Assembly (NCBI GenBank): GCA_963732855.1
Contig: CAVTBB010000005.1
Span: 139,821-203,820 of the forward strand
Direction: 5' to 3'
From: an uncultured Methanomassiliicoccales archaeon
GTDB lineage: Archaea; Thermoplasmatota; Thermoplasmata; Methanomassiliicoccales; UBA472
DNA: 64,000 nucleotides
In this document: piece by piece, positions 6,878 through 29,289 of the stretch
How the letters are laid out: every line of letters starts with the position of its first letter
Position numbering within the stretch: the first letter of the stretch is position 1
Notes under the pieces: generated by a model
What the model saw: only the letters and a program-made list of their open reading frames with translations
Told to the model about the DNA's origin: nothing
Database searches by the model: none
Made by a program: the position numbers and the translations under genes

Positions 6878-6894
6878 ATTCGTTTGACCTCAAC

Positions 6895-7101: not shown

Positions 7102-7242
7102 TGATGATAGAAAACGAACAAGGCAGTGTCAGAGCAACTCTGGTCTTCAGCCGAACGATCCATACACCAGATTCCTCGGATATATTAGCCATAGAAAGAG
7201 GATGTTCACCGTATTATCGATCCTCCCGTACCTGAGATATTC

Positions 7243-7250
7243 TTTATATA
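7243..7250 (+). promoter_or_regulatory. candidate TATA box for the 7283 gene
   Basis: TTTATATA lies ~35 nt upstream of the GTG start, and GGGAAGG sits immediately before that start. Confidence 0.3.
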
Positions 7251-7282
7251 CACTTACATAGGATAATTAGTCCGGGAAGGTC

Positions 7283-7969
7283 GTGGTAAGCAGAAGGCGC
7301 CTCAATGCATTCGCCGTCTCGTTCGTGGCCATGTTGATCGTCCAGGCCATCCTCACATATGTGATTGTCCCAGACTATAGACAGAGCGGTTACACCCAGA
7401 GCATCGGAAACGGAATGATTCCGGGGGAGTTCATAGGTTGGGGCGTGCGGACCGAGAACGGAAACAATTTGAACATGGAGGTGAGCGTGCCGGAAGGCTA
7501 CCTGATCGACGTCTACTTCATGAGCTATGATGACTATATGCAGATGGCCTCGAACCATTCGTTCGAATTCATTCCCGCGGCATCTCAGATGAACGTGAGC
7601 CATTTCTCTACTGCCATCAACATGGACCCATCGATCGATATTTACGATATTGTCATCGTCGGGCACGAATCGAATCCGGGAAATCCGACTTTCACATTGA
7701 GACTCGTCCAATCCCATTTCCCAGCCCAGCTCCTGAGCGTCGTACAGCTCGGCCAATTCATATCGATATACTCCGTCGTCCTTTTCTTCTTCCTTGTGAC
7801 CCTGGGTTATCGCGAGAACAGCCTGAATAGGAGCCCATACGTCAAAACCAGACCAAAGACGAAATGGAACAACTTCTATATGCAGTCCGCTTACGCGACC
7901 TTGGCGCTGTTCACTGTCCAGATGACGATGGCTTTGGTCATGTATTGGATCGTGATCGGTCCAGGTTGA
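7283..7969 (+). CDS. hypothetical membrane protein
   Basis: It has an N-terminal TM segment (AFAVSFVAMLIVQAILTYVIV), an extracytoplasmic middle part, and two C-terminal TM segments. I prefer it over the overlapping antisense 295-aa ORF, which has no recognisable features. Confidence 0.5.
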   Translation: MVSRRRLNAFAVSFVAMLIVQAILTYVIVPDYRQSGYTQSIGNGMIPGEFIGWGVRTENGNNLNMEVSVPEGYLIDVYFMSYDDYMQMASNHSFEFIPAASQMNVSHFSTAINMDPSIDIYDIVIVGHESNPGNPTFTLRLVQSHFPAQLLSVVQLGQFISIYSVVLFFFLVTLGYRENSLNRSPYVKTRPKTKWNNFYMQSAYATLALFTVQMTMALVMYWIVIGPG

Positions 7970-8134
7970 GCAATTCGTTCCGATCTTGAGACTGAACGAT
8001 CGAAGGTCAAGACAGTTAGGGGATCGTTTGTCAAAGGACTTTGAACTGACCGCGGGCAAGGACGTCTCGCTGCGCCACTTCAATATCCCGCTGACTGTAC
8101 TGAACATAGCGCGGTCTTTCCCTGCAGACATGTC

Positions 8135-10156
8135 CTATTCTTTGAATTGGATTAGATCAGGTGGACGATTGCTGCGGGCGATCTGATTCTCCAGTATTCT
8201 GGAAACTTCCTCTGGGGTCGATTTCTGCATGACCTTCAATTTGATGGCCAATACATCGATATGGGAGAAGGCGACCTCTTTCGGTTGTGAACCCTCGCTC
8301 TTCTTATTGTCATACTGGATCAGCGCCTCGATTATGCTGTTCTTATGATTTTCCCCAAGTTTCTTTCTTTTCACATAATTGATCTGGGCATTCAACGTGG
8401 GTAAACCAATCTCTACTACGTAGTCAAATCTTCCGTGCCGGGTCACCGCCGGATCAATCTCTGACAGATCTGAATTGGTGATCGTGATTATAATTATCCA
8501 TCTCTTGTCGTGTAATTTCTGCAGCCGTGGCAACATGCCGGCGGTGATAAACGCGCCAGCCGTTCGACTCTCCAGCTGTGCGCTTTGGGGTCGGGTCTTG
8601 AAGAATTCCTCGCACTCGTCCAGTAACACGATGACTCGTCGCATCTTGGTCAGGTCATCGAAGATCTTCGCCGCTTTAGCATCAAATCCTTCCAGCCCAT
8701 TCCTTAGGAAATCAGATGGAGATAGTGTTATCAAGGGCCATTTCAGTGCTTTGGAGATCCTTTTTACGGCAGTTGTCTTTCTTGTACCCGACGGGCCGTG
8801 TATGATCAAAGAGTTCATGCTTGATGGTTGATGAATCCAACTCCTGCTGATCGGTCTTATCATTACGTCCTTAAGGCTGCTAATGAGTGCCGAGCCATTA
8901 GTGGGATCGGAAATGTAATCCAATGCTTCCATCTCGATCCATTCGGGTTTTCGGATGTTCGGGATCATATCAGGCCAAATCGGAAGATTTGGAGTTGGTT
9001 TAGGATAGAAAAGGCTGTAATCCTTCAATAGTAGTTTTTGCCGGAGTTGTTGGAGGGCATCGGAGTAGCTGATCAGGAACATTAGTGTCGTTGCCGTTGC
9101 CCAGGACTCGATGAGACCCGATTTTCGGGTGCGGTCGTTTGACCATCCTGAAATTGTTCCGACCTTGGTAAAGTTGGACTTTGCCAGATTGAATGCCCGA
9201 TCGAGTGCCGGCAGTACCGCCTCGCAAGATTTCAGATCTCCCTGATGAAGACGTCTTATCAGGAGGTGAGTTAGTGATAGGGCGACCTCATAGCTTGAAA
9301 CATGGATCATTACGTTTCCTTCATACGAAATGTTAGTTGTTGGCCAGGCCCCGTCATGAAGTTGGGAATCCACTATCGATTGGATTGCCCGAGATGTAAG
9401 CAGGTCCGTATTGGAGACCTCGAAACGGTTCAGAAGAGCTATGCAGAACATGAGTTCCGCTGGATCATATTTTGACGTCACCCCAGCATATTCATATGCC
9501 AGGAGGCGCAGGAAGTCTTCCCTGATTTGTTCGATCAAGATAGGATCGGCTTCAAAGGTCCAATCGGGATAGGCAGAATGCAACATGTCCAGCGCCCTGA
9601 TCATATGGAGGGTCACCAAATGATGCACTTCATCTTTGGGACTTGCCTTTCCCCCACACCATTCCTCCAATTGAGTTCGGTTCTCCTCAGCGATCTTCAA
9701 GGCAGCTTCCCTCATGAGGTCGAGGTCTACGTCCAGTGAGGTTACTTCCAACAGATCGCCTAGAATCGAAACAGAGAAAAGGATCTGACTATCCGTGAAC
9801 ATGTTGATGCCGTTCGTTTCAGAACGTCTCGCTAGAGCAGGTTCACCCACAAGTCTCGATAGATATTTCTCGCAAACACCTTTCAGAATGGAGGTCATTT
9901 TGTCTTGTTCGCCTGGTATCTTTTCATCATCCAGTAGATCGGCCTCGTAAAGAAACCGCAGATACTGATGTAGAGCGATGAAGGAGCAATTGGTCGAAGT
10001 TGGATGTAATTTGCCATCCTTTTCGTTTAACTGGCGGATCGTACGCCAAAAGGTTCCATTCTCCGGATTATAGAATGCTTCGAGAGATCTTCCAGCCCGC
10101 AATATCCAATCCTGAAGGGAATTGATCTTCTCATCGAGATGAGCTATCTCAATCAT
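8135..10156 (-). CDS. fusion protein: N-terminal alpha/alpha-toroid-like (QW-type repeats) domain + C-terminal classical AAA ATPase
   Basis: The C-terminal ~200 aa are classical AAA: P-loop GPSGTRKT, Walker B VIVLLDECEE, sensor-1 ITITN, and DPAVTRHGRFDYVVEIGLP. The N-terminal ~400 aa are helical with NPENGTFW, QLHDGAWP and GTISGWSN motifs that resemble terpenoid-cyclase/prenyltransferase QW repeats. Confidence 0.8.
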   Translation of the reverse strand: MIEIAHLDEKINSLQDWILRAGRSLEAFYNPENGTFWRTIRQLNEKDGKLHPTSTNCSFIALHQYLRFLYEADLLDDEKIPGEQDKMTSILKGVCEKYLSRLVGEPALARRSETNGINMFTDSQILFSVSILGDLLEVTSLDVDLDLMREAALKIAEENRTQLEEWCGGKASPKDEVHHLVTLHMIRALDMLHSAYPDWTFEADPILIEQIREDFLRLLAYEYAGVTSKYDPAELMFCIALLNRFEVSNTDLLTSRAIQSIVDSQLHDGAWPTTNISYEGNVMIHVSSYEVALSLTHLLIRRLHQGDLKSCEAVLPALDRAFNLAKSNFTKVGTISGWSNDRTRKSGLIESWATATTLMFLISYSDALQQLRQKLLLKDYSLFYPKPTPNLPIWPDMIPNIRKPEWIEMEALDYISDPTNGSALISSLKDVMIRPISRSWIHQPSSMNSLIIHGPSGTRKTTAVKRISKALKWPLITLSPSDFLRNGLEGFDAKAAKIFDDLTKMRRVIVLLDECEEFFKTRPQSAQLESRTAGAFITAGMLPRLQKLHDKRWIIIITITNSDLSEIDPAVTRHGRFDYVVEIGLPTLNAQINYVKRKKLGENHKNSIIEALIQYDNKKSEGSQPKEVAFSHIDVLAIKLKVMQKSTPEEVSRILENQIARSNRPPDLIQFKE

Positions 10157-15558: not shown

Positions 15559-16005
15559 CTAGCCCGGACTTGGGGGCGCCCCGACAACGCACTGGTCGCC
15601 CCTCTCATCTATCGCAGGCGGTGCCTCTGCCCCTCTGCCTTTCTTGACCAGGTATTCCCGTATCGCCATGTGCAACGCGTCCGCGCCCAAGTTGGAGCAT
15701 TCCATCTTGCCTGGGGGCAGTCCGTCCAATGCATTCGCCACATCCTCACGGGTCATTTGTAGGGCCTGCTTCAGTGTCATCCCCTTGGCCATTTCGGTGA
15801 CCTTGCTCGACGTGGCGATGGCCGCGGCACATCCCATGGTCTTGAACTTGACATCGGTGAGGACGTCCTCCTCGACCTTGACGTATATGTGGACCAGGTC
15901 CCCGTCGGCTGGGTTACCCACTTTTCCGACGCCGTCGGCGTCAGGGATCTCTCCCACGTTCCTCGGGTTGGTGAAATGGTCCAGTACTTTACGCGAATAT
16001 CCCAC
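15559..16005 (-). CDS. iscU: IscU/NifU-N-type Fe-S scaffold, non-canonical ligand set
   Basis: It is IscU-like throughout (HFTNPRNVG, MGCAAAIATSS, ECSNLGADAL). However, the first ligand motif reads GNPADGD rather than GxPxCGD. It lies immediately downstream of nifS. Confidence 0.85.
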   Translation of the reverse strand: MGYSRKVLDHFTNPRNVGEIPDADGVGKVGNPADGDLVHIYVKVEEDVLTDVKFKTMGCAAAIATSSKVTEMAKGMTLKQALQMTREDVANALDGLPPGKMECSNLGADALHMAIREYLVKKGRGAEAPPAIDERGDQCVVGAPPSPG

Positions 16006-16008
16006 CTA

Positions 16009-17175
16009 TCACACCTTCGATCTGTATATGGGGGACATCACCCTTAATTTCTTTACCACTGCTGGCGCAACCTCGATGAAGCGGTCGATCTCCTCCATGG
16101 TATTGAACTTGGACAGGCTGGCCCGTAACGAGCCATGCATCTGCTCTTGTTTTAGGCCCAGGGCCAGCAGCACATGCGAAGGTCCGGTGGTCCGGGTGGA
16201 ACACGCCGATCCGGTCGAGACGCAGAAACCCTGCTGGTCCAGGTAGATCAGCAGCGATTCTCCATCAACCCCGTCGAACCGGAAGTGGGCGTTGTTGCAC
16301 AGACGTTCGCTAGGATGACCGTTCAGATGGACGTCCGGTATCTCGGTCAGTACCCCAGTGATCAGCCTGTCTCGCATCTGGGTCATCTTCGCCACGTCCC
16401 CTTCGAACTCGTTCATGCCCAGCTCGATCGCCTTGCCGATGCCCACGATGCCGGGAATGTTCTCGGTGGACGAACGCAGGCCGTGTTCTTGGCCGCCGCC
16501 ATATACCAGAGGCCGGATCTTCAACCCCCTCTTCAGATAAAGCGCCCCGATCCCCTTTGGCGCATGGAACTTGTGACCAGACATGGATAGCATGTCTATG
16601 TGGTCCTTGACCACATCCGTACGGACCTTAGTGATCGATTGGACCGCATCGGTGTGAAAGACCGCCCCCTTGTCGTGGGCGACCTCTGCCATCGCCCTGA
16701 TCGGCTGTGTCGTGCCGATCTCATTGTTGGCCGCCATCACCGAGACGACCAGGGTTTCCCCGGTCACTGCCTCCTTGACATTCTCCAGATCGACCGACCC
16801 GAATTCATCCACCGGAAGGTAAGTGACCCGAAAGCCCTCGCGCTCCAGGAACTCGCAGGTGTTCAGTACCGCATGGTGCTCGATCCTGGTGGTGATGATG
16901 TGATCGCGTTTGCCCCGGTTCGCGAAGGCATACCCCTGCAGGGCCATGTTATCCGCCTCTGTGCCTCCGCCCGTGAACAAGATCTCCCCGGGATCGGAGT
17001 TGATCGCCACAGCCACCTTTTCTCTTGCAGCGGTCATGCCCTCCTCCGCGCTCCTTCCAAGGCTGTGGAGGCTCGATGGATTGCCATACTCCTGGAGGAA
17101 GAATGGGTCCATGACCTCCAGGACCCTTGGGTCGACGTTTGTTGTAGCGCTATTGTCGAAATACGTTATGTTCAC
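16009..17175 (-). CDS. nifS: cysteine desulfurase (NifS/IscS class)
   Basis: It has YFDNSATT, the PLP lysine in SMSGHKFHAPKG, and the catalytic Cys in STGSACS. The start is reassigned to GTG 17175, which lies 9 nt after AGGAG. Confidence 0.9.
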   Translation of the reverse strand: MNITYFDNSATTNVDPRVLEVMDPFFLQEYGNPSSLHSLGRSAEEGMTAAREKVAVAINSDPGEILFTGGGTEADNMALQGYAFANRGKRDHIITTRIEHHAVLNTCEFLEREGFRVTYLPVDEFGSVDLENVKEAVTGETLVVSVMAANNEIGTTQPIRAMAEVAHDKGAVFHTDAVQSITKVRTDVVKDHIDMLSMSGHKFHAPKGIGALYLKRGLKIRPLVYGGGQEHGLRSSTENIPGIVGIGKAIELGMNEFEGDVAKMTQMRDRLITGVLTEIPDVHLNGHPSERLCNNAHFRFDGVDGESLLIYLDQQGFCVSTGSACSTRTTGPSHVLLALGLKQEQMHGSLRASLSKFNTMEEIDRFIEVAPAVVKKLRVMSPIYRSKV

Positions 17176-17356
17176 AGCAAACCATCTCCTAGCCGATATT
17201 AACAATAGATAACACAAAATCCGGTATAATAACCTGAATGGTCAACATCATACACCCCTTGAAGTTCACAGGGGGATGCGGTCTTCATGAACCGAAGTTG
17301 AGGGTACCGGATGTTCTACCTTTCGCTTCTGATGACTGACCGCACCCCACATCATT

Positions 17357-18490: not shown

Positions 18491-19702
18491 ATGGACGTTG
18501 AAAAGATAAGGGCCGATTTTCCCATACTATCGAATGGGGACAAGAGCCTGGTCTACCTCGATACGGCCTGCCAGAGCCTTAGGCCTAGGCAGGTGGTCGA
18601 GGCCATGGATTCCTATTATTATGAGTATCCGGCCTGTGGCGGGAGGAGCGTGCACCGGCTCGCGACCCAGGTATCGATCAAGGTCGACGAGGCCAGGGAG
18701 AAGATATCCGATTTCATCGGTTCGGACTCGTACGACCAGATAATCTTCACCAAGAACACCACCGAGTCCATCAACCTAATTGCCAGGGGTCTCGGCCTCA
18801 AGCGCGGCGATGCGGTGCTGACGACGGACATGGAGCATAACAGCAACCATGTTCCTTGGCTGCGGTTGAGGGGGACCGCCGGCGTCGATCGGGTAATCGT
18901 TGCCACTCCCGACGACGGATCGTTCGACATTGAAACGTTCAAGAACTCGCTGTCTAAGAAGGTCAGGTTGGTCAGTGTGGTCCAGACGAACAACGTAACG
19001 GGCACCACCATACCGGTGAAGGATATCTGCGAGATCGCGCACGACAACGGTTCGATGGTCATGGTGGACGGGGCACAATCGGCACCTCACATGAAAGTCG
19101 ACATGGATGACATGGATGCGGACTTCTATGCGTTCTCCATGCACAAGATGCTCGGCCCATCCGGGGTCGGTGTGCTATACGGGAAGAAGGAACTGCTCAA
19201 TAAGGTCGAACCTCTCATCGTTGGAGGCGGAGGCGTCAGCCTCACGACCTATGACAAAGTCGACCTGCTCCCGATACCGGAGCGGTTCGAATCCGGTCTT
19301 CTCAACTATGCCGGGATCATCGGTTCCGGAGCGGCGGTCGACTATCTGAGGGCGATCGGGATGGACGAAGTGCTGGAGCACGATATCGAATGCAACCGAA
19401 TCGTGACGGATGGACTGGCTGACGAGGGAAAGATCACGATCATCGGTCCCAAGGACCCGGAGCTCCGGGGGAGCATCTTTTCGTTCAACATCAGCGGCAT
19501 GCGCTCCCATGATGTAGCGATGATACTGGACGAGATGTCCGGGATGATGATACGTTCCGGTATGCATTGCGTGCATCCATATTTCCTGACCAGAAAGATC
19601 GATGGGGCGGCACGCGCCTCTTTCTATGTCTACACCAGCAAGGATGAGTGCAGGCGCTTCGTTCAGGCGGTCAAGGAGACGGTGCGTTCCTTTGCCACCT
19701 GA
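18491..19702 (+). CDS. sufS: cysteine desulfurase, SufS/Csd class
   Basis: It has LDTACQS, the PLP lysine in FSMHKMLGPSGVGVLYG, and the catalytic Cys in RSGMHCVHP. Confidence 0.85.
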   Translation: MDVEKIRADFPILSNGDKSLVYLDTACQSLRPRQVVEAMDSYYYEYPACGGRSVHRLATQVSIKVDEAREKISDFIGSDSYDQIIFTKNTTESINLIARGLGLKRGDAVLTTDMEHNSNHVPWLRLRGTAGVDRVIVATPDDGSFDIETFKNSLSKKVRLVSVVQTNNVTGTTIPVKDICEIAHDNGSMVMVDGAQSAPHMKVDMDDMDADFYAFSMHKMLGPSGVGVLYGKKELLNKVEPLIVGGGGVSLTTYDKVDLLPIPERFESGLLNYAGIIGSGAAVDYLRAIGMDEVLEHDIECNRIVTDGLADEGKITIIGPKDPELRGSIFSFNISGMRSHDVAMILDEMSGMMIRSGMHCVHPYFLTRKIDGAARASFYVYTSKDECRRFVQAVKETVRSFAT

Positions 19703-20103
19703 ATGATGATCCGGTTTTTGGACAGGTCCTTGTGTAAGATGAGCAAGTCACCATGGACCAGGATGTGGTTTCCGTCCGCGGTGACGTTGCTTTCGAGATA
19801 TGTGATAGTGGAGTGCAGCGGTGCGTATCTCCCTCCGATCTCGGATTCAATACAGACATATCCATTCTTGATCGATGCCACTGACTGAACATCAGGCAGG
19901 AAATCAGCCACCGATATTGTCATCTGGACATTGTCCGGTGAATCAGAAACGGAATCGATGACGGCAGCTAACTGCGTCACTCGGTGCTGAACCTCGTCGT
20001 CCGCCACGGCATGGTCCACCCCGGAGAATGCGATCACAAGGACCGTGGTCACCGCAATGCCGCAGACGAATAGCCAGACCTTTGAAAGGAAGAACTCCAT
20101 CAT
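19663..20103 (-). CDS. small N-terminally membrane-anchored protein (third gene of pilin-like trio)
   Basis: It has an N-terminal hydrophobic helix (VWLFVCGIAVTTVLVIAF). Its start overlaps the stop of the upstream gene by 4 nt. Confidence 0.45.
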   Translation of the reverse strand: MMEFFLSKVWLFVCGIAVTTVLVIAFSGVDHAVADDEVQHRVTQLAAVIDSVSDSPDNVQMTISVADFLPDVQSVASIKNGYVCIESEIGGRYAPLHSTITYLESNVTADGNHILVHGDLLILHKDLSKNRIIIQVAKERTVSLTA

Positions 20104-20561
20104 GAGTTGCTCACCAGCACATAGGTCCCGTTGTCCGAAACGCAGGTGAAAGAGATCCTGACCACGCCCGATGTCAAATGGAAAGGATGGTTATCGGCGG
20201 TCGTGACCCGAACCGCAGGATTCGATAGAAAGATACGGTCTAGTCCTCCCTCATGCATGACCTTGATGACCATCGACTCGGTCCGATCCAGGTCGCCTCC
20301 GATCTCGATGGTGCATTTGTTGTCCGAAAGCGGCGAATCCAGGACCCGGTGGTTGCCGGGACCGGAAAGGTAGGTGGCTGTGATCATCTCCCTGATGTGT
20401 TCGGCAGCGCTCATCGCCTGAGACTCCGACGTTTTGGCCTGAAAGGAGCCAATGCTGGAAAGCAAAATGGGGGCAGAAAGCGAGATCATAAGAGAGACGA
20501 TTAGGAGCTTTAGCGGCATCCCCTCCAGCCCCCGCTTATCCGTTATGGCCAAAACGGTCAC
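20100..20561 (-). CDS. type IV pilin-like / TadE-like N-terminus protein
   Basis: The N-terminus MTVLAITDKRG|LEGMPLKLLIVSLMISL has a basic stretch, a Gly, then a hydrophobic helix, which is class-III-signal-like. It overlaps both neighbouring genes by 4 nt. Confidence 0.5.
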   Translation of the reverse strand: MTVLAITDKRGLEGMPLKLLIVSLMISLSAPILLSSIGSFQAKTSESQAMSAAEHIREMITATYLSGPGNHRVLDSPLSDNKCTIEIGGDLDRTESMVIKVMHEGGLDRIFLSNPAVRVTTADNHPFHLTSGVVRISFTCVSDNGTYVLVSNS

Positions 20562-21034
20562 CCCGAAATGACCGGGATGCTCAGGCTGGTGTCCGTGCCG
20601 TAGCCGCTCTTGGTGACCGTGACCGTGACGAAACCGACCGCCTTGCCGGTCTGGGTTACCTGAAGATTGTTCAGCGTCACCTTTCCGCTGGAATCGGTCG
20701 TTCCGTATGGTCTGGTGCCGTCCATCCTAGTGATGCCGCATCCGTCAAGAACGACCGTCGCTCCGGATAGTGGATCGCCCTTGCCATCAGAAACGGCCAT
20801 GGTGAGATCGATGTTCTCGACCTCGTAGATCCCGTCTCCGTTGCCATCATGCGCAACAATCTCCGATGGAGAGGATGTGACCGACCCGATGGATTGCGGC
20901 GCGTTCAGGTTCCCCATCCATCCCAGCAGTACAGCGGAGCCTATCCCGGCGATCAGTACCATGATCATCAACTGCAGCGGCAGTCCCTCGATCCCTCCGC
21001 TCCGGTCTTTCTTGAATCGTGTTCTCATCCTCAT
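20558..21034 (-). CDS. type IV pilin-like / TadE-like N-terminus protein with beta-rich ectodomain
   Basis: The N-terminus reads MRMRTRFKKDRSGG|IEGLPLQLMIMVLIAGIGSAVLLG. It is followed by a Gly/Thr/Val-rich, beta-type domain. Confidence 0.5.
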   Translation of the reverse strand: MRMRTRFKKDRSGGIEGLPLQLMIMVLIAGIGSAVLLGWMGNLNAPQSIGSVTSSPSEIVAHDGNGDGIYEVENIDLTMAVSDGKGDPLSGATVVLDGCGITRMDGTRPYGTTDSSGKVTLNNLQVTQTGKAVGFVTVTVTKSGYGTDTSLSIPVISG

Positions 21035-21435
21035 GTGAGTACCTCTGTTCCCAAACCGGTCCCGGGGTCGATATGCGGTGCCGTTACAGTCAGGCTACGC
21101 CGTACATCATTAACCAGCGATGGAAGTTGAAATTCCTAAATGTTATTCGAGGGCGAGATCGGGAAAAGGATCACAAATTGTAAGTTAATCCGACATTCAT
21201 CATCTGACAGATGAATAGAATTTCTGCAATGCAAAAGGAACGGCATTGCAGAGGGGAGATAATTACCACAACTAGTGATGGAAATATCCGATAGGACGAA
21301 GGGCCATTAATGCATAATATGCTGGCTACCTTCTAGATGAGCACCGTACTTTCCAGTCTAGTTCATCAATTCGGAATTTATTGGAATGACAACCCTCGAC
21401 ATCTTTTATGGCAGGAATGTGAGGACTGAAAGTGT

Positions 21436-21636
21436 TTACACCGGGTCGCCCAACTTGATCTTGACCTCTTTTACGTCCCACATGTTCCCGACCTTTTCTT
21501 GGATCTCTTCCTCGATGTTCGCCGCGAACAGGTTGTTCGAGGCCAGGTCGAGATCGATCGTGACCACCCCGTCTTCCACCTTGATTTCCTTGACCATCTC
21601 GGTCCTGACGATGTCCAGCCCGGCAAGCGGGTTCAT
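21436..21636 (-). CDS. short DUF59/MIP18-like protein (lacks the usual Cys)
   Basis: The segment LDIVRTEMVKEIKVEDGVVTIDLDL resembles the DUF59 core. It is only 66 aa long, and its ATG overlaps the stop of the reading frame of the nifU remnant. Confidence 0.45.
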   Translation of the reverse strand: MNPLAGLDIVRTEMVKEIKVEDGVVTIDLDLASNNLFAANIEEEIQEKVGNMWDVKEVKIKLGDPV

Positions 21637-22097
21637 GACGTGTCTTCAGGCGGCTGCTGCACGATCTCCACAGTGGTCGGCACCTTCTCCTTGTACCATC
21701 CCGTGCTTCTCTTCGTAGTTCTGTATGGCGGCCTCGAAGGCCTCGACCGCCAGCACCGAGCAGTGCGCCTTGATCTTCGGCAGCCCGCCCAGCGCGTCCG
21801 AGGCTTCCTGCCAGCTGATCTCCTTGGCCTCTGTCGAGGGTCTTGCCCTTGGCCAGCTCGGTGATGATCGAGCCGGTGGCGATGTTGGAGGCGCAGCCGT
21901 AGGACTCGAACTTGATGTCCGATGACTTTGGTCTCCGGGTCCACTTTGATGTAGACGGCCACCATGTCGCCGCAGGCGGGGCTGCCCTCCATGGCCTTGC
22001 CGTCGGCGTTTTCGATCTTGCCGACGTTGTGCGGGTGCCGGAAGTGCTCCAGAACCGTCTCGGTATACGGGAATTTCATGTTCAGTCCTCTCTTCAC
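21633..22097 (-). pseudogene. second iscU/nifU copy, at least 2 frameshifts
   Basis: Frame a encodes MKFPYTETVLEHFRHPHNVGK...GSPACGDMVAVYIKVDPETKVI. Frame b encodes DIKFESYGCASNIATGSIITELAKGKTLD. Frame c encodes EAKEISWQEASDALGGLPKIKAHCSVLAVEAFEAAIQNYEEKHG. I re-framed these by hand. Confidence 0.75.
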
Positions 22098-22158
22098 GCT
22101 TTCTTGCCCAGCGGACTGATTTTTCTCAGAGTCAGCGGACTGATCTTCGGCCAGCGTC

Positions 22159-23279
22159 TCAACGATGGCTCGATCCGCATGCTTCCTCCATGGTGTTATA
22201 GCGGCTCAAGCGTGAAGCGATCGAGCCATGGGCCCGCTCGTGGTCGCCGCCGATGCCGTAGATGACGTGGCTGCCCTCCAGCGAGCGGCTGAAGCAGGCC
22301 GAGCCGGTGCTGACGGCGAAGCCGCGCATGTCCAGGTGCAGGGTGATCGATTCGCCCTCGACAAAGTGGAAGGAGATGTTGGCGTTCTGCGGCAGGCGCT
22401 TGCTGCGGGGCCGTTGAGCATCGCGTGTCGGGATCTCTGCCAGCGTGCGTCGATCAATGTGATCGCGCATGGCTCGCAGCTGCTTGTTCTCCTCGTCGTG
22501 ACCAGTTCGGCCGCCCTGGCGAAGCCCACCGCGCCCGGGATGTTCTCCACGCCGGCCCGCAGGTCGAACTCCTGGAACCCGCCGTCCATCCACTTGGCCA
22601 GCGGCGTGCCCTTGCGCACGTACAGGCCGCCGACGCCCCTGGGGCCGTGGATGGTGTGCGCCGAAACGGTCAGCAGGTCCACCGGGATCTTCGCTGACAT
22701 CGAGCGGCACGCGCCGGAAGGTATGCGTGGCGTCGGTATGGAACAGGACTCCCTTCTCGCGGCAGATACCCGCCGATGGCCTCGATGTCCTGCACCGTGC
22801 CGATTTCCTGGTTGGCGTGCTGGACGGAAACCAGGATGGTCTCGTCGCGTGATGGATGCTCAAGCTGGTCCAGGTTGACGAATCCTTCACCGTCAACATC
22901 AAGGTAAGGTGACCCTGAAGCCCTCGTCTCTCCAACGCTGGGCGCTGTTGCAGCACCGGGAAATCCTCGATTTTGGAGACGATGATATGCTTGCCCTTTT
23001 TCCTTGCCGAGCGCCATGGCCGACGCCTTTGAGCGCCATGTTGCTGGATTCGGTGCCGCCCGAGGTGAAGATGAATTCTTCCGGGCCTGCGCCCAGGGGT
23101 CGGCGAGATCACTCGGGCGCCGTCCAGGGCTTCCCGCGCCTCGATCCCCAGGGAGTAGCCGAACTCGGAGGTGGCCACGGCGTAGGTCTCGAAGAAGTAC
23201 GGCTTCATCGCCTCCAGCACCCGCTCGTCCAACGCGTGGTGGCGGCCGCATTGTCCAGATAATGTCCCTTTTCTTTCAT
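22159..23279 (-). pseudogene. second nifS-type cysteine desulfurase copy, many frameshifts, PLP-Lys lost
   Basis: Recognisable NifS segments are scattered over all three minus-strand frames: [104 protein letters not shown]. The PLP site reads SAHT rather than SxHK. Confidence 0.8.
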
Positions 23280-23303
23280 TGGTACCCTCTCAAATGAACA
23301 GCG

Positions 23304-23706
23304 TCACGTGGAGTCTTTGGCTTCGTTGATGTAGGTGCCGACCGCCCCGTAATCGTCGATCAGATCGACCCTCAGGTCTTCTTTTTTGATGCCCATGATG
23401 TCCATGGTCATATCGCAGGCGAGGATCTTACCGCCCAGTTCCTTGAAGTCCTGCATCATCTTTTCCAGATCGACCACGTTGGCCTTTTTCATCCTCCTTT
23501 TGACCATCATTTCCCAGGCCCAGCATGTTCATCTTGGAAAGCGGACCCTTCTCCAGTCCGCCTTTCTTGAGACGCTGCAGGCCCCAGAAAGTGAAGAACA
23601 TCGACGCTTCCATGCCCATGGAAAGCGCGCCGTTACCGATGATGAGCGCGCTGTAGACCTTGTCCATGTCCCCGCTGTGAACGATGATCGTCGTTCGTTC
23701 TGCCAT
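23304..23706 (-). pseudogene. DsrE/DsrF-like sulfur-relay protein, one frameshift
   Basis: The N-terminal half (MAERTTIIVHSGDMDKVYSALIIGNGALSMGMEASMFFTFWGL...MNMLGLG) and the C-terminal half (MMVKRRMKKANVVDLEKMMQDFKELGGKILACDMTMDIMGIKKEDL) lie in different frames. They join at the run gggaaatgatgg. Confidence 0.7.
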
Positions 23707-23711
23707 CTTTA

Positions 23712-23951
23712 TCACCCCTTCACTTTCTTAATTCGGATGCGCCAGGTATTCCCTTCCTCCTTGATGTCGAGGAGCTCCTCCCCGAGCGACGCGACCGCCA
23801 TCGGGATCTCCTTCTTGGACGCCGGATGGTCTCCTGTGATCTCTATGATATCGCCTATCGACGCCTTTCGCAATGCCTTCCTAGTCTCAACCAAGGGCGT
23901 TGGACAGTTCTTGCCCATGCAATCAACCTTAATCTCCGCCATCGTGTTCAC
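23712..23951 (-). CDS. tusA: TusA/SirA-family sulfurtransferase
   Basis: It is 79 aa, has the active-site motif CMGKNCPTPL, and shows the typical TusA length and pattern. It is the first gene of the decayed operon. Confidence 0.85.
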   Translation of the reverse strand: MNTMAEIKVDCMGKNCPTPLVETRKALRKASIGDIIEITGDHPASKKEIPMAVASLGEELLDIKEEGNTWRIRIKKVKG

Positions 23952-23994
23952 CTTGAGACAATATTGATTCTAATTCATATGTTATTATTGTTAA

Positions 23995-24020
23995 ATGATA
24001 CAATAATATGATACAATAAT
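23995..24020. repeat. perfect tandem 13-nt direct repeat (atgatacaataat x2)
   Basis: I read this directly from the sequence. It lies in the divergent intergenic region between tusA (-) and the HTH gene at 24230 (+). Confidence 0.8.
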
Positions 24021-24229
24021 GGGATCGCGGCCAACCAGCATCTATCCGCAGATACCTGTCGCGATATACTGATCTATCAATGTCGCCTACGCCGATGCGA
24101 CACCTAATATCACTTCCCTAAATGGTCGAGCCACCTATCGCTTGGCCACCTGGCAGGTCTACAGGTTGTTTATCAAAAATGATAACTGACCTATTCGATT
24201 TTATACGATAGAACCGCGATTTTAAAGAA

Positions 24230-24601
24230 GTGCCGGAATTACAGCCTCCCGAAATATCGAGCCTATTGGCCGATAGACATTCGGCGAGGATACTCTTTGT
24301 CACTATGAGACATCCAAGATCGGCATTTGATCTCAGTCAGACAATTGGGATACCCATTGCTGTCTGTTTTCGGAAGATCAAGTTGCTTGAAGATGCTGGT
24401 TTGATCGTCTGCGCGGAAAGGATGGTCATTAACAACGGAAAGAGGGTTAGCCTCTTCAGGTCGAACCTGAAGAACGGCCAGGTCTTTCTTGAAAGAAACA
24501 AGATCCAGGCTAGGATCGAGTTGTTCGATGGTTCGTTGGAGGAAGTGAGGTATGAGATGGAATTGCCGATATTTCGTAATGTGACCAAAAAACCGGTTTG
24601 A
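24230..24601 (+). CDS. ArsR/wHTH-type transcriptional regulator
   Basis: The segment HSARILFVTMRHPRSAFDLSQTIGIPIAVCFRKIKLLEDAGLIV has a winged-helix pattern. Confidence 0.6.
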   Translation: MPELQPPEISSLLADRHSARILFVTMRHPRSAFDLSQTIGIPIAVCFRKIKLLEDAGLIVCAERMVINNGKRVSLFRSNLKNGQVFLERNKIQARIELFDGSLEEVRYEMELPIFRNVTKKPV

Positions 24602-24852
24602 TGGCAGCCACGCAACATGTGAAGAGGAGACCACATCAGATTCAAGAGACCCCTCAATTCGTACTCCGCATTTCGCATTGCCATCTGGATGTACAATAAG
24701 CGACATGATTTTCAAATATCATGCGCGTAACCCGAAGCCAAGCTACGATATTCCACAAAGAAATATGATGGACTAGCGGGTAAGCTTTATCTAAACAATG
24801 ATTATACCGAGGGAGAGCGTCGCATGCTACGACGTGTCTAAGGTGCGTCAGA

Positions 24853-26241
24853 ATGTTCAATCGTGTCCTAGTGGCGAACAGAGGCGAGATCGCGATAAGG
24901 ATCCTCAAGACCTGCAAGAGACTTGGTATTCCCACGGTCGCCGTCTATACGCCATCGGATAAACACTGCAAGCACGTTGGGCTGGCCGATAGGGCGGTCG
25001 AGCTGCAGTCCAAGCCGGGGATGATCGGCTACCTGGACATGGACGCCATTTTCGATGTGGCCAACCGGATGAAGGTGGAAGCGATCCATCCCGGCTACGG
25101 TTTCCTATCTGAGAAGGCCGAGTTCTCCGAGCGATGCGAGGAGGAGGGGCTTTCGTTCATCGGGCCGAACCCGCGGGCAATGAAGCTATTGAGCACCAAG
25201 CTCGGTTCTAGAGCATTCATGACCAAGGTTGGCGTACCGGTCATGCCAGGCGTGCTAGAGCCGCTGAAGGACGCGGAGGACGCCAAGAAGCAGGCCAACC
25301 GTATCGGATACCCGGTCATGCTGAAGGCGTCCGGAGGCGGCGGCGGGCGCGGGATGCGGGTCGTCAACAACGACACCGAAATGGAAGACGCGTTCGCATC
25401 GGCCAGGAACGAGGCGGCCAAGGCGTTCAACAACCCCACGATCTACATGGAGAAGGCATTCCTGCGCGGAAGGCACATTGAGTTCCAGGTGGTCGGCGAC
25501 TCCAGGGGCAACGCTTACTGCCTGGGAGAGAGGGAATGTTCCGTCCAGCGCCGTCACCAGAAGATCCTGGAGGAGACTCCGTCCTGCGCCGTCAACGAGG
25601 AGATGAGGGAGCGTATCGGCACCCTGGTCAAAGAGGCGGTCAAGAAGGCCAGGTACACTTCGCTGGGAACGTTCGAGTTCCTCATGGGCGACGGGCACCT
25701 GTACTTCATGGAGGCCAACTGCCGTATCCAGGTGGAGCATCCGATCACCGAGGTCTGCACCGGGCTGGACCTGGTGGAGATGCAGTTGTCAATCGCCACC
25801 GACAAGGATGTTACGAAAGAACTCGGTTCGGTGCAGCCGAAGGGGCACGCGATGGAGTTCCGTATCAACGCCGAGAACCCGTTCAACAATTTCATGCCGA
25901 CACCAGGACGCATCGAGAAATACGTCGAGCCAGCCGGCGAGGGCATCCGCATCGACTCCCACGCTTACGAAGGGTATGTCGTCCCCACCGAGTTCGACAA
26001 CCTCCTGGCCAAGCTAATCGTCCACGGTAAGGACAGGACGGAAGTGCTGAACAAGGCACGGGATGCCTTGGACCGATACACGGTCACCGGGATCAAGACC
26101 ACCATTCCGTACCATAGGTTGGCCATCAGGAACCATGATTTCATCGACGGCAACTACAACATCGAGTTCGTGAAGGACCATCCTCCGGCCGACATGCTGA
26201 AACAGACCGAGTTCTCGCTGTTCGAGAACTACGGTCCCTGA
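24853..26241 (+). CDS. biotin carboxylase (pyruvate carboxylase subunit A / AccC type)
   Basis: It has ATP-grasp biotin carboxylase blocks: VANRGEIAIRI, HPGYGFLSE, MLKASGGGGGRGMR, ERECSVQRRHQK, NCRIQVEHPITE. Confidence 0.9.
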   Translation: MFNRVLVANRGEIAIRILKTCKRLGIPTVAVYTPSDKHCKHVGLADRAVELQSKPGMIGYLDMDAIFDVANRMKVEAIHPGYGFLSEKAEFSERCEEEGLSFIGPNPRAMKLLSTKLGSRAFMTKVGVPVMPGVLEPLKDAEDAKKQANRIGYPVMLKASGGGGGRGMRVVNNDTEMEDAFASARNEAAKAFNNPTIYMEKAFLRGRHIEFQVVGDSRGNAYCLGERECSVQRRHQKILEETPSCAVNEEMRERIGTLVKEAVKKARYTSLGTFEFLMGDGHLYFMEANCRIQVEHPITEVCTGLDLVEMQLSIATDKDVTKELGSVQPKGHAMEFRINAENPFNNFMPTPGRIEKYVEPAGEGIRIDSHAYEGYVVPTEFDNLLAKLIVHGKDRTEVLNKARDALDRYTVTGIKTTIPYHRLAIRNHDFIDGNYNIEFVKDHPPADMLKQTEFSLFENYGP

Positions 26242-26810
26242 AGTACTACTTCCGCTACGGTGGTGTACGCCGGGCCTTTCGGACCGAGCACGCTCTTCTT
26301 CAGCCTGATCGAACGAACTGGCCTCATACCGAAATCATGGTCCTTGAAACGTTCGATGATGCCTTTTACCTGCTCCGTCCCGGTCGGGTCCTTCATCCGG
26401 CCAACGGTCAGGTGCGGGGAGAATGGCCTTTCCTCCCTCTCGAACCCAAGGCGTGCGCATTCTTCGTCCAGGACCTTGGCGATGCCTATCAAAGGTTCCG
26501 CTCCATGCATGCCCACCCAGACCACCCGGATGTTATCCTTCGAGGGAAACGACCCCATGCCTTTCAGCGATATCTCGAATGGCGCCACGCCCTTGACCGC
26601 CTTATCCATGGCGGCGATGAGCTTCGGGATCGCCGCCTCGTCCGTCTCCCCGAGGAACTTCAGCGTGACATGGATTATGTCCATGGCCACTGGCCTCATC
26701 CCACCCCCCACGGTGCGCAGTTCGCGGTCTAACTTGACCAGTTCACCGATCTCGGAGATGTCGACCGATATGAAACCTCTGAACAATCCCATCGTTTTCA
26801 CCCGTTCCAT
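26229..26810 (-). CDS. thpR: RNA 2',3'-cyclic phosphodiesterase (2H family, ThpR/LigT)
   Basis: It has two HxT/S motifs (HVTLKF and HLTVGR) at the spacing typical of the family. The true start may be the internal MGLFRGF. Confidence 0.85.
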   Translation of the reverse strand: MERVKTMGLFRGFISVDISEIGELVKLDRELRTVGGGMRPVAMDIIHVTLKFLGETDEAAIPKLIAAMDKAVKGVAPFEISLKGMGSFPSKDNIRVVWVGMHGAEPLIGIAKVLDEECARLGFEREERPFSPHLTVGRMKDPTGTEQVKGIIERFKDHDFGMRPVRSIRLKKSVLGPKGPAYTTVAEVVLQGP

Positions 26811-26981
26811 CTAGTCTGCGAACTCAGTTCCGCACTTCTTGCACTTGACGGTGTAGTGCTTGCCGCCGCCGGTCTGTTTCACGACCGCCACGTATTCGGT
26901 GCAACCGCACTTGCCGCAGGAGACCGGCTCTTCCCCTTCATCCTCTTCGCACTTTTCTGCCTTCTTTGGTTTCGGCGCCAT
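26811..26981 (-). CDS. small zinc-ribbon protein
   Basis: It has CGKCGC...CKKCG, i.e. two CxxC knuckles. I set the start at MAPKPKK; the upstream part of the track ORF lies in the AT-rich promoter-like sequence. Confidence 0.5.
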   Translation of the reverse strand: MAPKPKKAEKCEEDEGEEPVSCGKCGCTEYVAVVKQTGGGKHYTVKCKKCGTEFAD

Positions 26982-27066
26982 CAGATAAGGAAGACCGATG
27001 GAGCTATAATAAGAATCATGCGGGCAGGTTACCAGAATTGAATACAAATGACTGATGAACAGAATG

Positions 27067-27816
27067 TCACACCCATCTCTCCGTGCCGATCTCCAGGGTC
27101 ATCATGGTCAAGTATCTGAGCACCTTGTCGCCCTTCTCGGTGAGGGAGTAATCTCCCCTCTCCTGGTTCTGGATGATCATGTTCGTCGCGGTAAGCTTCC
27201 CTAGATGGAAAAGCAGGTTGCCACCCTTCAGACCGGTGATGCTGGAAAGCATGGAGTAGCTCCTTGGCTGATCGATCAATGATCTCATTATCTCAAGCCT
27301 CTGGGGGTTTGCGATGGGGTCGACCACCTCCCGCACGATCTTATCCTCGTCCATCCTCCTTATGAGGTTCCTCAGGTTCTCGTCTGAGACGAAGGAATTC
27401 TGGCTGCGGATGACCCGGACGTGCCGGTCGAACATGGAGTATACCTCATCAAAACATATGGAGCACTTTTTGTATGGCGCCTTGAACCTCATCGTATCCA
27501 GCTCCTTCCGCATCTCGATCAGCTTCTTTTCATCCACCTTCTCCTCGCCTACTAGCTTGGCGCTCCTCTGCAAGAAATCGGTGAACGCCTCCTTGCACGC
27601 GGTGCGGCAATCGCACGGGCTTACCATGCACCGGTCCAAGTCGACGTCCACGTCCTCGACCAGGTGGTTGACCATGATGTTGAGCGCACAAGTGTCGTTC
27701 CCGCTCCGGATTGAACGGTTGTTCATCAGGATATCCACTTTCCCACTGAGGTTGGATATCGCGGTCAGCAGGTCCGACATCTCCGCGGGCTCTCTCTTAG
27801 CAGGCTTGGCTGGCAT
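27067..27816 (-). CDS. transcriptional regulator: Cys-rich N-terminal domain + C-terminal ArsR-type wHTH
   Basis: The C-terminus ([45 protein letters not shown]) is ArsR-like. The N-terminal half contains [12 protein letters not shown] and CSIC clusters. Confidence 0.65.
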
Positions 27817-27925
27817 GTTCGTGGCACCTCTGTTGGTCGTTACACATTCCTGTAGCTGCTACATAATATTGACGAATAACTATATACTTCTAACCCGGGA
27901 ATATGAATTGCAGGAGATACCCATC

Positions 27926-28168
27926 TTGGTCGATGTCAAGAAAGAGATCAGGGCACAGATCGTTGGAGCATTGAAAGAAGCGGAATTCCCCATCAAGACG
28001 CCGGCAGACTTGCTGAAGGCTTTCCCGATGGGTGCAGAGACCACCTGCCAGGCTGGCGATGTCAAGATGACCGCAGGAGAGGCCGGCAAACTTCTCAAAC
28101 CGGAGGATTTCCCGTTCAAAGATGCCGCGAAGGTGGCGGACACCATCCTGAAGAGGGCGGGAATGTGA
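27926..28168 (+). CDS. small MTH865-like protein
   Basis: The pattern [69 protein letters not shown] matches my memory of the ~80-aa MTH865 family. A TTG start 9 nt after AGGAG is proposed; the track ORF is a long spurious 5' extension antisense to the regulator. Confidence 0.5.
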
Positions 28169-28185
28169 GGTAAGGAGACGTAGAG

Positions 28186-29289
28186 ATGGCTGACACTATG
28201 AACCATATCGAGAGGGCAGTCGCGTCCCTGCAGGACAAGCCTGTGGACCGCCTGTCGACCTACCCGCTGGCGATGGGCGTATGCCGCCGCACCGTCGGCG
28301 ATGGCACAATGACCTACCGGGACTGGGCATCGGACCCGAAGAAGTTTGCCGCCGGTTTCATCGCTGGACAGAAGTATTTCGACTTCGACTGGGCCATCGG
28401 CCTGATGGACCTTTCCGTCATGGCCGGCGATCTGGGCGCCACCGTAAGGATGGATGACCAGAACACCCCGTTCGTCACCGAGCCGGCGTTCAAGACCGTG
28501 GAGGACTACGAGACCTTCGAGGTCCCGGACGTGCACAAGGGACGCTCCGGAGTTCTGCTCGAGGGAACCAAGCTCTTCACCGACGCGCTGAAGAGCCAGG
28601 TGATATGCGCGGGATTCATCGAAGGCCCGCTGCTGGCGCTGACGCAGTCGACCGGCGCGGAGAAGGTCTTCATGGACATGTACAACCACCGCGGCGCCAT
28701 ACACAAGGCGCTGGCCAAGCTGACCGAGTTCGACATGAAGCTGATCGACGGCTTCAAGGAGACCGGCTGCGCTGGTTTGGTCTGGGACTACCTGTGGGGC
28801 AGCTATTCATGCCTGGGCGACAAGGAGTACGAGGAGTTCGAGAGCAACGACAAGTACGCCCTCAAGCTGAACGCGCGCGTCGCCGAGCTCGGCATGGCCA
28901 ACTGCATCCACAACTGCGCCGACCTGCCGCACCTGGACACCCAGGTCAAGAAGATGAAGCCGGCGATCTACTCGATGGCCTACTACCCGTTGATCCCCGG
29001 ATCGCCGTCCCCGAAGGAAGCGATCGGCAAGGGATACGCAGACAACTGTCTGCTCGCCGGGGAGGTCGACCCGCAGCTGTTCGTTCGCGGAACGACCGAG
29101 AAGACGCAGAAGACCACCATGAACCTGGTGCAAGAGGTCAAGACCGCTCTCTGCGAGAGGGGCCTGCACTCCAGGTATTGCATCGCGTCCGGATGCGAGG
29201 TACCGCCCACCGTGACGACCAAGCTTGAGAACATCAAGATGTGCGTCGACACCGTGAAGCAGTATGGCCAGGTCACCTGCGCAAAGTAA
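28186..29289 (+). CDS. methylcobamide:CoM methyltransferase (MtaA/MtbA, uroporphyrinogen-decarboxylase fold)
   Basis: It is URO-D-like along its full length, with the Zn-ligand region IHNCAD...CIASGCEVP. The substrate class (methanol versus methylamine) cannot be decided from the sequence. Confidence 0.8.
   Translation: MADTMNHIERAVASLQDKPVDRLSTYPLAMGVCRRTVGDGTMTYRDWASDPKKFAAGFIAGQKYFDFDWAIGLMDLSVMAGDLGATVRMDDQNTPFVTEPAFKTVEDYETFEVPDVHKGRSGVLLEGTKLFTDALKSQVICAGFIEGPLLALTQSTGAEKVFMDMYNHRGAIHKALAKLTEFDMKLIDGFKETGCAGLVWDYLWGSYSCLGDKEYEEFESNDKYALKLNARVAELGMANCIHNCADLPHLDTQVKKMKPAIYSMAYYPLIPGSPSPKEAIGKGYADNCLLAGEVDPQLFVRGTTEKTQKTTMNLVQEVKTALCERGLHSRYCIASGCEVPPTVTTKLENIKMCVDTVKQYGQVTCAK

Follow-up and report, generated by a model that had tools for sequence, protein, structure and literature searches.

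The minimal iron-sulfur (MIS) system, found in archaea and anaerobic bacteria, consists of an IscS-like and an IscU-like protein, MisS and MisU, without chaperones or carriers (PMC13066941). The IscS of Archaeoglobus fulgidus is a natural case of a protein without the PLP lysine; it is inactive as a desulfurase and contributes a cysteine ligand to the [2Fe-2S] cluster of IscU (PMC7585200, PMC13066941). The PLP lysine is also absent from IscS1 (MA0808) of the isc1 locus of Methanosarcina acetivorans, which has the same STGSACFS loop as the protein described below; its partner IscU1 (MA0807) is enlarged to ~24 kDa, a size that fits a NifU_N–DUF59 fusion of ~213 aa, and the two genes are clustered with extra genes of unknown function (PMC7585200). 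Recombinant IscS1 has been reported in inclusion bodies only, and the function of IscS1 and IscU1 is putative (PMC7585200).

Here, we analyze a cluster of this kind at 23942–21436, on the minus strand of a 64,000-nucleotide stretch (hereafter, the window) of a contig from an uncultured Methanomassiliicoccales archaeon. A sequence-only reading had described it as a five-gene operon riddled with frameshifts, and preferred to explain it by the recent inactivation of an acquired cassette. We confirm that the cluster is frameshifted. We propose, with a probability of roughly 0.7, that the deposited sequence is a chimeric, poorly polished consensus and not a decaying gene, an artefact that we infer from the comparisons presented below.

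Gene content and the IscS/NifS-like protein

The window carries four genes in the order tusA, dsrE2-like, lysine-less IscS/NifS-like, and NifU_N–DUF59 fusion, and the gene order is identical in an archaeal relative and in two Dehalococcoidia loci. NifU_N and DUF59 (FeS_assembly_P) form a single fusion protein of 211–213 aa in every intact homolog (L002, L003, L004, L006, L007, and 120 database matches), and hence the supposed fifth gene, a 66-aa "DUF59" ORF at 21636–21436 that begins at an internal Met, is a fragment: the unbroken tail of the fusion. The first and last genes had been taken as intact, which holds for tusA but not for DUF59. The four-gene operon is syntenic and intact in a sister Methanomassiliicoccales MAG (L004), and for this reason we dismissed a recent foreign origin of the cassette as a whole; it is the ordinary operon of this Methanomassiliicoccales lineage, with four genes in conserved synteny.

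The tusA gene (23712–23942, minus strand; 76 aa; Pfam TusA, E = 1.6e-22) is intact and of native archaeal type, with zero window-specific indels in a nucleotide alignment against 14 intact operons. The exact protein is present in the source assembly (P0121). It is 89% identical to the proteins of the relatives L004 and L005, at most ~76% identical to full-length TusA of bacterial-type operons, and 78%–82% identical to two partial Methanothrix-type matches. The AT-rich leader just upstream of tusA contains a 13-bp direct repeat, ATTATTGTATCAT, in two tandem copies (23995–24020, minus strand; two matches versus 0.04 expected), which may be a promoter or operator element; the motif TTAACAATA…ATATGAA adjoins the repeat and is shared with L004. 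Downstream from tusA, the dsrE2-like gene (23290–23706, minus strand; 139 aa when intact) has two frame breaks, as seen both in a frameshift-aware alignment to the DsrE of L004 and in the nucleotide alignment, and its corrected translation matches Pfam DrsE_2 (E = 3.2e-36). The IscS/NifS-like gene, of the MisS/IscS1 type (22094–23279, minus strand; ~386–394 aa when intact), is the most heavily disrupted, with at least 13 frame-disrupting indels. The NifU_N–DUF59 fusion (21436–22079, minus strand; 213 aa when intact) has five frame breaks, and both of its domains are detected by Pfam on the corrected translation.

The corrected NifS-like translation has the fold of class-V aminotransferases (Pfam PF00266, Aminotran_5; E = 1.3e-62). 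It is not a canonical cysteine desulfurase, given that Thr replaces the PLP-binding Lys of the SGHK motif, as an alignment with the lysine of PDB 4R5F shows. An intact relative scored 439.5 for NifS (cut-off 530.75) and 350.9 for IscS (cut-off 643.2), thus below both curated cut-offs. The replacement had been noticed previously (SAHT, versus SGHK in the copy at 16009) and counted as a sign of inactivation. The observation is correct, but of 146 intact homologs, 145 have Thr at this position and 140 retain the Cys loop STGSACFS; the motifs of the window, SAHTIHGP and STGSACFS, fit this family, for which the first can be written SAHT[IVL]HGP. The change from Lys to Thr is therefore a family trait and not a sign of decay, and we discarded the lost lysine as a decay marker.

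Frameshifts and the foreign-type core

Using a custom frameshift-aware alignment together with the nucleotide alignment against the 14 intact operons, we identified 20 window-specific indels between 23510 and 21642 (14 insertions and six deletions), none of them a multiple of three. This count is a lower bound, since one or two more compensated pairs are likely (e.g., IASRL for IRFTL near 22210). Plain tblastn with the window NifS or close homologs ran across the frameshifts and was of no use for counting breaks. Three of the four genes are hit: dsrE by two indels (a 2-nt deficit at ~23510 and a 1-nt deficit at ~23308), the nifS-like gene by 13, and nifU–DUF59 by five (21922, 21832, 21694, 21653, and 21642). 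The sequence-only reading had counted at least two breaks in nifU and roughly six or more frame switches in nifS, and had missed one of the two in dsrE. Most indels lie outside homopolymer runs, and we accordingly rejected homopolymer slippage as their cause. The rest of the window consists of ordinary long ORFs.

Sliding nucleotide identity, segment identities, GC content, and indel positions together delimit a GC-rich tract of bacterial (Dehalococcoidia-like) type at ~23630–21640 on the minus strand, whose upstream edge is approximate and whose downstream junction is sharp in an alignment with the independent contig L002 (~21645). The tract holds every frameshift: all 20 indels are inside it or at most ~80 bases from its edge, where three junction insertions sit in otherwise native-like sequence. 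There are no indels in the ~520 native bases of the operon (tusA, the start of dsrE, and the DUF59 tail), where ~6 would be expected at the density of the tract. Its GC content is 0.611, reaching 0.633 in nifS, versus 0.549 for the whole window, in agreement with the GC enrichment reported earlier. The corrected NifS-like protein shares 76%–80% identity with proteins of Dehalococcoidia type and 68% with that of L004. For the C-terminal half of the DsrE2-like protein, identity is 83% with bacterial-type proteins and 71% with the L004 protein, whereas proteins encoded in the flanks show 75%–95% identity with their L004 counterparts. At the NifS positions that distinguish the archaeal from the bacterial clade, the window bears the bacterial residue in 21 of 28 cases. 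Native-specific bases make up 25% of the diagnostic sites in the tract compared to at most 20% in natural alleles, a marginal excess (an earlier test with native-private bases in 62 sequences had no power). Two observations speak against our proposal. The tract has the look of one coherent bacterial-type allele with a low dN/dS, and not of an obvious blend, and our donor search gave a best match of 82% at the protein level and ~80% at the nucleotide level (L046, an Anaerolineae MAG), and no closer database sequence; Methanosarcinales homologs were among the matches, with ~69%–70% identity.

The frame-corrected sequence shows little of what is expected from decay. Frame-disrupting mutations, as in a decaying pseudogene cluster, are certainly present, and the uninterrupted frames of this operon type are not. 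Nevertheless, we found no trace of relaxed selection: There are no in-frame stop codons after frame correction, only three mismatches in 119 invariant NifS columns (all adjoining frameshifts), a dN/dS of 0.10–0.16, and an untouched tusA and DUF59 tail. In simulations of 14 random substitutions, one for each nifS indel, the probability of observing neither a stop nor a change in an invariant column was 0.02, and with 28 or more substitutions none of the 1500 trials was free of both. Natural decay would thus require about two or more indels per substitution. For the inactivated cassette favored by the sequence-only reading, then, the foreign look of the tract is borne out, whereas decay is poorly supported: stops are absent, invariant residues are kept, dN/dS is low, the native parts are free of indels, and the cassette itself is native and syntenic.

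An independent assembly and the origin of the damage

Two contigs of a short-read Logan assembly (ERR11571143) match the flanks of the tract at 100% identity over 5.9 kb in total. The upstream flank (24506–28215; 3710 bases) is identical to contig L001, which ends at 24506, and the downstream flank (19451–21644; ~2200 bases, comprising the DUF59 tail and three pilin-like genes) is identical to L002. At ~21645, L002 drops to 82%–89% identity with the window, and continues with an intact 213-aa NifU–DUF59 and an archaeal-type NifS tail, which is 90% identical to L004 (71% for the version in the window). The lesions are thus not reproduced in independent data over 21645–22314, the part of the tract that L002 covers before it ends, where it is intact and native; we recovered no native allele for 22314–24506. 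L002 could also represent a co-existing strain. Exact-protein look-ups with the wHTH protein, the DsrE fragment, and TusA (from either of two start codons) gave no further independent contig. A scan of JGI metagenomes with the neighboring pilin yielded relatives of at most 83% identity and no same-species assembly, a search with NifU–DUF59 yielded nothing above 92%, and a literature search for the run accession gave no result. We did not use the "sources" given by cluster look-up as proof of absence, because they omit Logan for proteins that are present on L002.

We suggest that the operon core of ~2 kb (~23630–21640) in the deposited contig is not the allele of the organism itself, but a consensus of low quality, built on the Dehalococcoidia-like allele of this highly conserved operon. 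The frameshifts, 20 or more, would have come in with the tract as consensus errors instead of arising in the cell by mutation. Assembly or polishing may have recruited noisy long reads to the core, either from other organisms bearing the operon or from a minor haplotype; these reads would align only where the two operon types are ~75%–85% identical in nucleotide sequence, and would fail in tusA and in the DUF59 tail, where identity is ~60%. Long-read bins of the lineage do contain errors of this type, as indicated by L092, a related contig whose name is in Flye style and whose copy of the operon has frameshift-split genes. Localized indel errors in a GC-rich stretch, the second choice of the initial reading, therefore come closest to our results, although it was not foreseen that the stretch is a Dehalococcoidia-type allele between archaeal flanks.

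A real pseudogenised xenolog, in which the core was replaced by recombination and then gained, or arrived with, ~20 frameshifting indels, would also account for a tract that is coherently bacterial, with native sequence on both sides at homologous positions. The operon family does cross phylum and domain boundaries, with 72%–80% identity among Dehalococcoidia, Syntrophales, Thermodesulfovibrionales, Methanothrix, and Altiarchaeales. The cell would survive on the nifS/nifU genes at 17217–15559 and the SufS-like gene at 18491–19702, and since this second NifS/NifU pair and the nearby SufS-like gene are intact, the loss would be tolerable. We nonetheless consider this explanation unlikely. It needs an indel-to-substitution ratio of at least ~2:1, opposite to what natural mutation spectra show, in a sequence that acquired no stops and kept its invariant residues and low dN/dS; it leaves the native parts of the same dead operon wholly unchanged, and places three junction insertions in otherwise native-like sequence. 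Moreover, the allele is native and intact in the sole independent assembly whose flanks are identical. A hypermutable locus already ranked last in the sequence-only reading. We regard a locally hypermutable or programmed-frameshift locus, with biological indels that are tolerated or read through, as exceedingly improbable: Apart from the tight clustering of the indels nothing speaks for it, the 20 or more shifts occur in both directions without a common slippery motif, homologs elsewhere are intact single ORFs, and no repeat or targeting element was seen.

The foreign allele might instead be real and the damage alone spurious. A recombinant allele with an intact bacterial-type core, residing in a minor sub-population, taken up by the assembler in spite of its low coverage, and affected by low-coverage consensus errors, would explain both the coherent foreign sequence under purifying selection with indel-only damage and the native allele in another assembly of the same population; it would also fit the Logan contigs, which break at 22314 and 24506 as expected of a multi-allelic region. 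Recombination across ~20%–25% nucleotide divergence is rare, however, and no intact copy of the tract allele was found in 5.8 billion proteins or 185,579 species genomes, making this possibility distinctly unlikely in our view. We are similarly doubtful about a Methanomassiliicoccales population with a cross-domain recombinant operon and a Dehalococcoidia-type core of ~2 kb, in which the indels are either low-coverage errors or repair scars. The recombinant core may then comprise the C-terminal half of dsrE2, the IscS-like gene, and the NifU_N domain, swapped at homologous positions, and the scars may derive from mismatch-triggered repair of a heteroduplex with ~20% mismatches.

An annotation that trusted the deposited sequence would list a recently inactivated, horizontally acquired Fe-S/sulfur-relay operon, and the archaeon would be scored as lacking the system. 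Our analysis points to a chimeric consensus that is laden with indels and restricted to a gene core of unusual conservation across phyla. It should caution those who count pseudogenes, call HGT, or reconstruct metabolism from metagenome bins. The frameshifts perhaps deserve less attention than the operon family itself. Its members, 70%–80% identical between bacteria and archaea, have a putative function; from their sequences, they would link TusA and a carrier of DsrE2 type with an IscS homolog predicted to be unable to form the PLP internal aldimine, and with an IscU–DUF59 scaffold.

Comparison with known systems

The damage resembles the polishing artefacts of long-read bins in being indel-only and local, with truncated ORFs in a conserved gene, as in L092. 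It differs from the usual artefacts in that it is limited to 2 kb and coincides with a switch of allele, whereas elsewhere the window matches short-read contigs perfectly. Among solved structures, the best match of an intact relative is the IscS–IscU of A. fulgidus (PDB 4EB5, 4EB7, and 4HVK; E = 5.6e-97); the lysine position is Asp in A. fulgidus IscS and Thr in the family of the window, and the solved complex is devoid of TusA and DsrE2 partners and of the DUF59 fusion. Compared with isc1 of M. acetivorans, where MA0808 and MA0807 were considered by their description, the copy in the window is frameshifted, and no archaeal clade is as close to its core as the Dehalococcoidia type. With respect to the MIS system, finally, the MisS homolog of the window is without the lysine on which cysteine desulfuration depends, MisU is fused to DUF59, and the genes for two sulfur carriers, TusA and a DsrE2-like protein, come before the pair.

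Gene content and frame damage of the operon

At 23942–21436, on the minus strand, a cluster of tusA, a dsrE-like gene, a nifS/iscS-like gene and nifU plus DUF59 survives as short ORFs alone. The organism belongs to the Methanomassiliicoccales, the order in which a cluster-mate of its TusA is annotated, and the source contig spans 686,689 bp. The locus is intact in a related Methanomassiliicoccales MAG (GCA_036504055.1, hereafter L004) and its JGI twin (L003), with the same neighbourhood as in the window (biotin carboxylase, pilin-like genes and a SufS-like gene). There the operon encodes TusA (76 aa), DsrE_2 (139 aa), Aminotran_5 (386 aa) and a single NifU_N + FeS_assembly_P (DUF59) fusion (213 aa); the identical four-gene set, in identical order, is found in Dehalococcoidia, and Pfam recovers all operon domains on the frame-corrected window translations. 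An earlier sequence-only reading had counted five genes, the first (tusA) and last (DUF59) intact. TusA indeed carries no indel, but since the intact locus has a single fusion, the ORF at 21636–21436 is the portion of it downstream of the last frameshift, and the genes are four.

We mapped the damage by frameshift-aware protein-to-DNA alignment and by nucleotide alignment with 14 intact operons, with concordant results: 20 window-specific indels (14 insertions and 6 deletions), none a multiple of three. On the minus strand, two fall in dsrE, at 23510 (−2) and 23308 (−1); 13 in the nifS-like gene, at 23233, 23102, 23022, 23003, 22949, 22909, 22771, 22693, 22495, 22427, 22409, 22176–22170 and 22144–22141; and five in nifU–DUF59, at 21922, 21832, 21694, 21653 and 21642. 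Homopolymer runs host only a minority of them. The tract likely holds one or two more compensated pairs, e.g., where it reads IASRL against IRFTL of homologs. The GC content of the cluster is 0.61–0.675, versus 0.549 window-wide. The frameshifting and GC enrichment noted from sequence alone are thus borne out, as are the minimum of two breaks in nifU and the roughly six or more switches in nifS; the overall count was too low, and the one break reported for dsrE is in fact two.

The AT-rich leader of tusA contains a perfect tandem 13-bp direct repeat, ATTATTGTATCAT, in two copies (23995–24020, minus strand; 0.04 matches expected by chance), and after it a TTAACAATA…ATATGAA motif (23975–23993) that recurs upstream of tusA in L004; these elements may be a promoter or operator. 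Divergent from the operon is a small ORF (24305–24601, plus strand; annotated at 98 aa in the source assembly), whose MarR_2 match is weak and below threshold (E = 8.9e-4) and inside which L001, a contig of an independent short-read assembly, ends (24506). Only ~900 bases (23952–24852) separate biotin carboxylase from tusA in the window, versus ~5 kb in L004 (2812–8000), where genes for FtsZ, two TPP-enzyme subunits, an FeS protein, a CobW-like protein and a PALP protein are additionally found. No more than 6 kb from the damaged operon lie an intact canonical NifS (402 aa, SGHK lysine present) with its NifU partner (148 aa), at 15559–17217, and an intact SufS-like protein (403 aa, 18491–19702); this genome therefore has further routes to Fe-S assembly. 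Elsewhere in the window, ARAGORN and Rfam both support a tRNA-Gly(gcc) at 48215–48288; a 95-base tRNA-Gly(tcc) called by ARAGORN at 56613–56707 (plus strand), within a long minus-strand ORF (54743–58240), has no Rfam support at the gathering threshold and is probably a false call.

A switch of allele type within the operon

Through exact copies of flanking window proteins we found two contigs, L001 and L002, in the Logan assembly of ERR11571143, which may be a different sample. L001 matches window 24506–28215, and L002 matches 19451 to ~21645, both at 100% identity. Past ~21645, the identity of L002 falls abruptly to 82–89% until its end at 22314. This divergent part, reaching over only one third of the tract, directly reveals an intact native allele: it encodes an intact 213-aa NifU–DUF59, and its NifS tail is 90% identical to that of L004, whereas the window tail is 71–74% identical to such archaeal-type tails. 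Between the window and L002, dS is 0 over the flanking sequence and climbs to 0.55 across the nifU portion (dN/dS 0.16).

Protein identities to archaeal and bacterial types, respectively, identify TusA as native-like (89% and ~75%), the N-terminal half of DsrE as uninformative (89% and 89–92%), its C-terminal half (71% and 83%) and the NifS-like protein (68%, to L004, and 76–80%) as bacterial-like, NifU_N as slightly bacterial-like (82.7%, to L002, and 86.6%), and DUF59 as native (99%, to L002, and at most 59%). Two observations back the NifS-like assignment: proteins of the flanks share 75–95% identity with those of L004, and the frame-corrected NifS-like copy has the bacterial residue at 21 of the 28 positions separating the two clades. 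The copy lies outside the archaeal clade, whose identities are at least 78% within and at most 72% to all others; its closest species-level genomes are Dehalococcoidales (78–80%). Frameshift-tolerant alignment, which the sequence-only reading proposed for counting breaks and identifying a donor lineage, gave the count (20). Database searches yielded no donor, the best nucleotide match to the tract being ~80%.

The allele switch is seen directly and coincides with all the indels, the tract (~23630–21640) matching the indel cluster. It covers the part of the operon where archaeal and bacterial nucleotide identity is ~75–85%, and ends where this is ~60%. As an allele the tract is coherent and shows no obvious blending. 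At 21645–22314 it has the native base at 19 of 76 sites (25%) that distinguish L002 from most bacterial-type alleles, in a fine mixture with bacterial-type bases; 59 natural alleles average 9% and reach 20% at most. The excess hints, marginally, at a mosaic or hybrid consensus.

Origin of the frameshifts

We conclude, with a confidence of roughly 0.7, that the organism's own DNA lacks the frameshifts, and that the tract is a bacterial-type allele captured in a chimeric and poorly resolved consensus. During assembly or polishing this allele would have overwritten the core of the native operon, itself very conserved, either from mis-recruited noisy reads of other operon-bearing organisms or from a low-coverage minor haplotype; we infer a long-read origin for the source contig. 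Points that weigh against this reading are the coherence of the tract as an allele, the failure to find a donor, the reach of L002 over a mere third of the tract, and the chance that ERR11571143 stems from another sample. The localised indel errors in a GC-rich stretch considered earlier would thus stand as errors, with an allele switch at the same tract besides. Indel-split genes occur in bins of this lineage, as seen in a Methanomassiliicoccales relative (ENA ERZ25039529 contig_75300, a Flye-style name; 3212–8661) with ~78% nucleotide identity to the window. Its operon is frameshift-split into DsrE (87 aa), a NifS-like protein of 375 aa whose tail is out of frame, and separate NifU_N (140 aa) and DUF59 (73 aa) ORFs, and its other nifS survives as fragments of 103, 67 and 133 aa, a pattern typical of an indel-prone consensus. 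The other window ORFs are long and ordinary.

Recent inactivation of a foreign cassette, also put forward from sequence alone, agrees with the foreign-type tract (21 of 28 residues), but a real pseudogenised xenolog is unlikely given the lack of a decay-type substitution signature. After frame correction the window genes contain no stop codons, dN/dS of the corrected copy against several homologs is 0.10–0.19, and the NifS-like protein mismatches 3 of 119 columns invariant among 121 homologs, all three abutting frameshifts. When random substitutions were simulated in the corrected nifS, the probability of introducing neither a stop nor an invariant-column change was 0.13 with seven substitutions and 0.02 with 14 (one per indel), and with at least 28 the outcome never occurred in 1,500 trials; natural decay would therefore need roughly two or more indels per substitution. 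Prokaryotic pseudogenes usually show the opposite, with more substitutions than indels and more deletions than insertions. A dead operon is also expected to decay along its whole length, but no indels occur in the native portions of this one (tusA, the start of dsrE and the DUF59 tail, the last identical to L002), which total ~520 bases and would hold ~6 at tract density. At the junction, three insertions fall within ~80 otherwise native-like bases, and look like noise tied to the source of the sequence rather than to the gene. Another reading, in which the recombinant allele is real and its indels are artefactual, we regard as quite unlikely; it agrees with the consensus-error reading on the frameshifts but takes the foreign allele to be a physical part of the genome. 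We give genuine cross-domain allele replacement a low probability. A hypermutable or programmed-frameshift locus, the former already ranked last from sequence alone, we consider very remote. The observation itself is real but was largely mis-modelled, and most likely does not represent a genuine biological feature.

A lysine-less IscS family shared across domains

The replacement of the PLP lysine (SAHT) noted in the sequence-only reading is correct, but it is ruled out as a lesion: the position is Thr in 145 of 146 intact homologs, which conserve the catalytic loop STGSACFS. The module is shared at 72–80% protein identity (loci L003/L004 and L006–L087) by bacteria (Dehalococcoidia, Anaerolineae, Syntrophales, Thermodesulfovibrionales) and archaea (Methanothrix, Methanofastidiosa, Altiarchaeales, Methanomassiliicoccales). 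Such cross-domain conservation of TusA–DsrE2–IscS(Thr)–IscU-DUF59 is unusually high, and the system is experimentally uncharacterised; the module and the improbable case of genuine cross-domain allele replacement are what leaves the locus of some interest. In the intact operon, TusA and the DsrE2-like protein would be putative persulfide or thiosulfonate carriers, and the IscS-like protein, predicted to be unable to form the PLP internal aldimine but retaining its mobile-loop cysteine, may act as structural partner and cluster ligand. The operon would then likely assemble Fe-S clusters on an IscU–DUF59 scaffold with sulfur from the TusA/DsrE2 relay, or sulfide, instead of cysteine desulfuration. 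The lysine-less type is represented by M. acetivorans IscS1/IscU1 (PMC7585200) and falls within what is now named the MIS system (PMC13066941). The best PDB match is the IscS of A. fulgidus, also lysine-less, in which the mobile-loop cysteine is a ligand of the IscU-bound [2Fe-2S] cluster; the window family keeps that cysteine.
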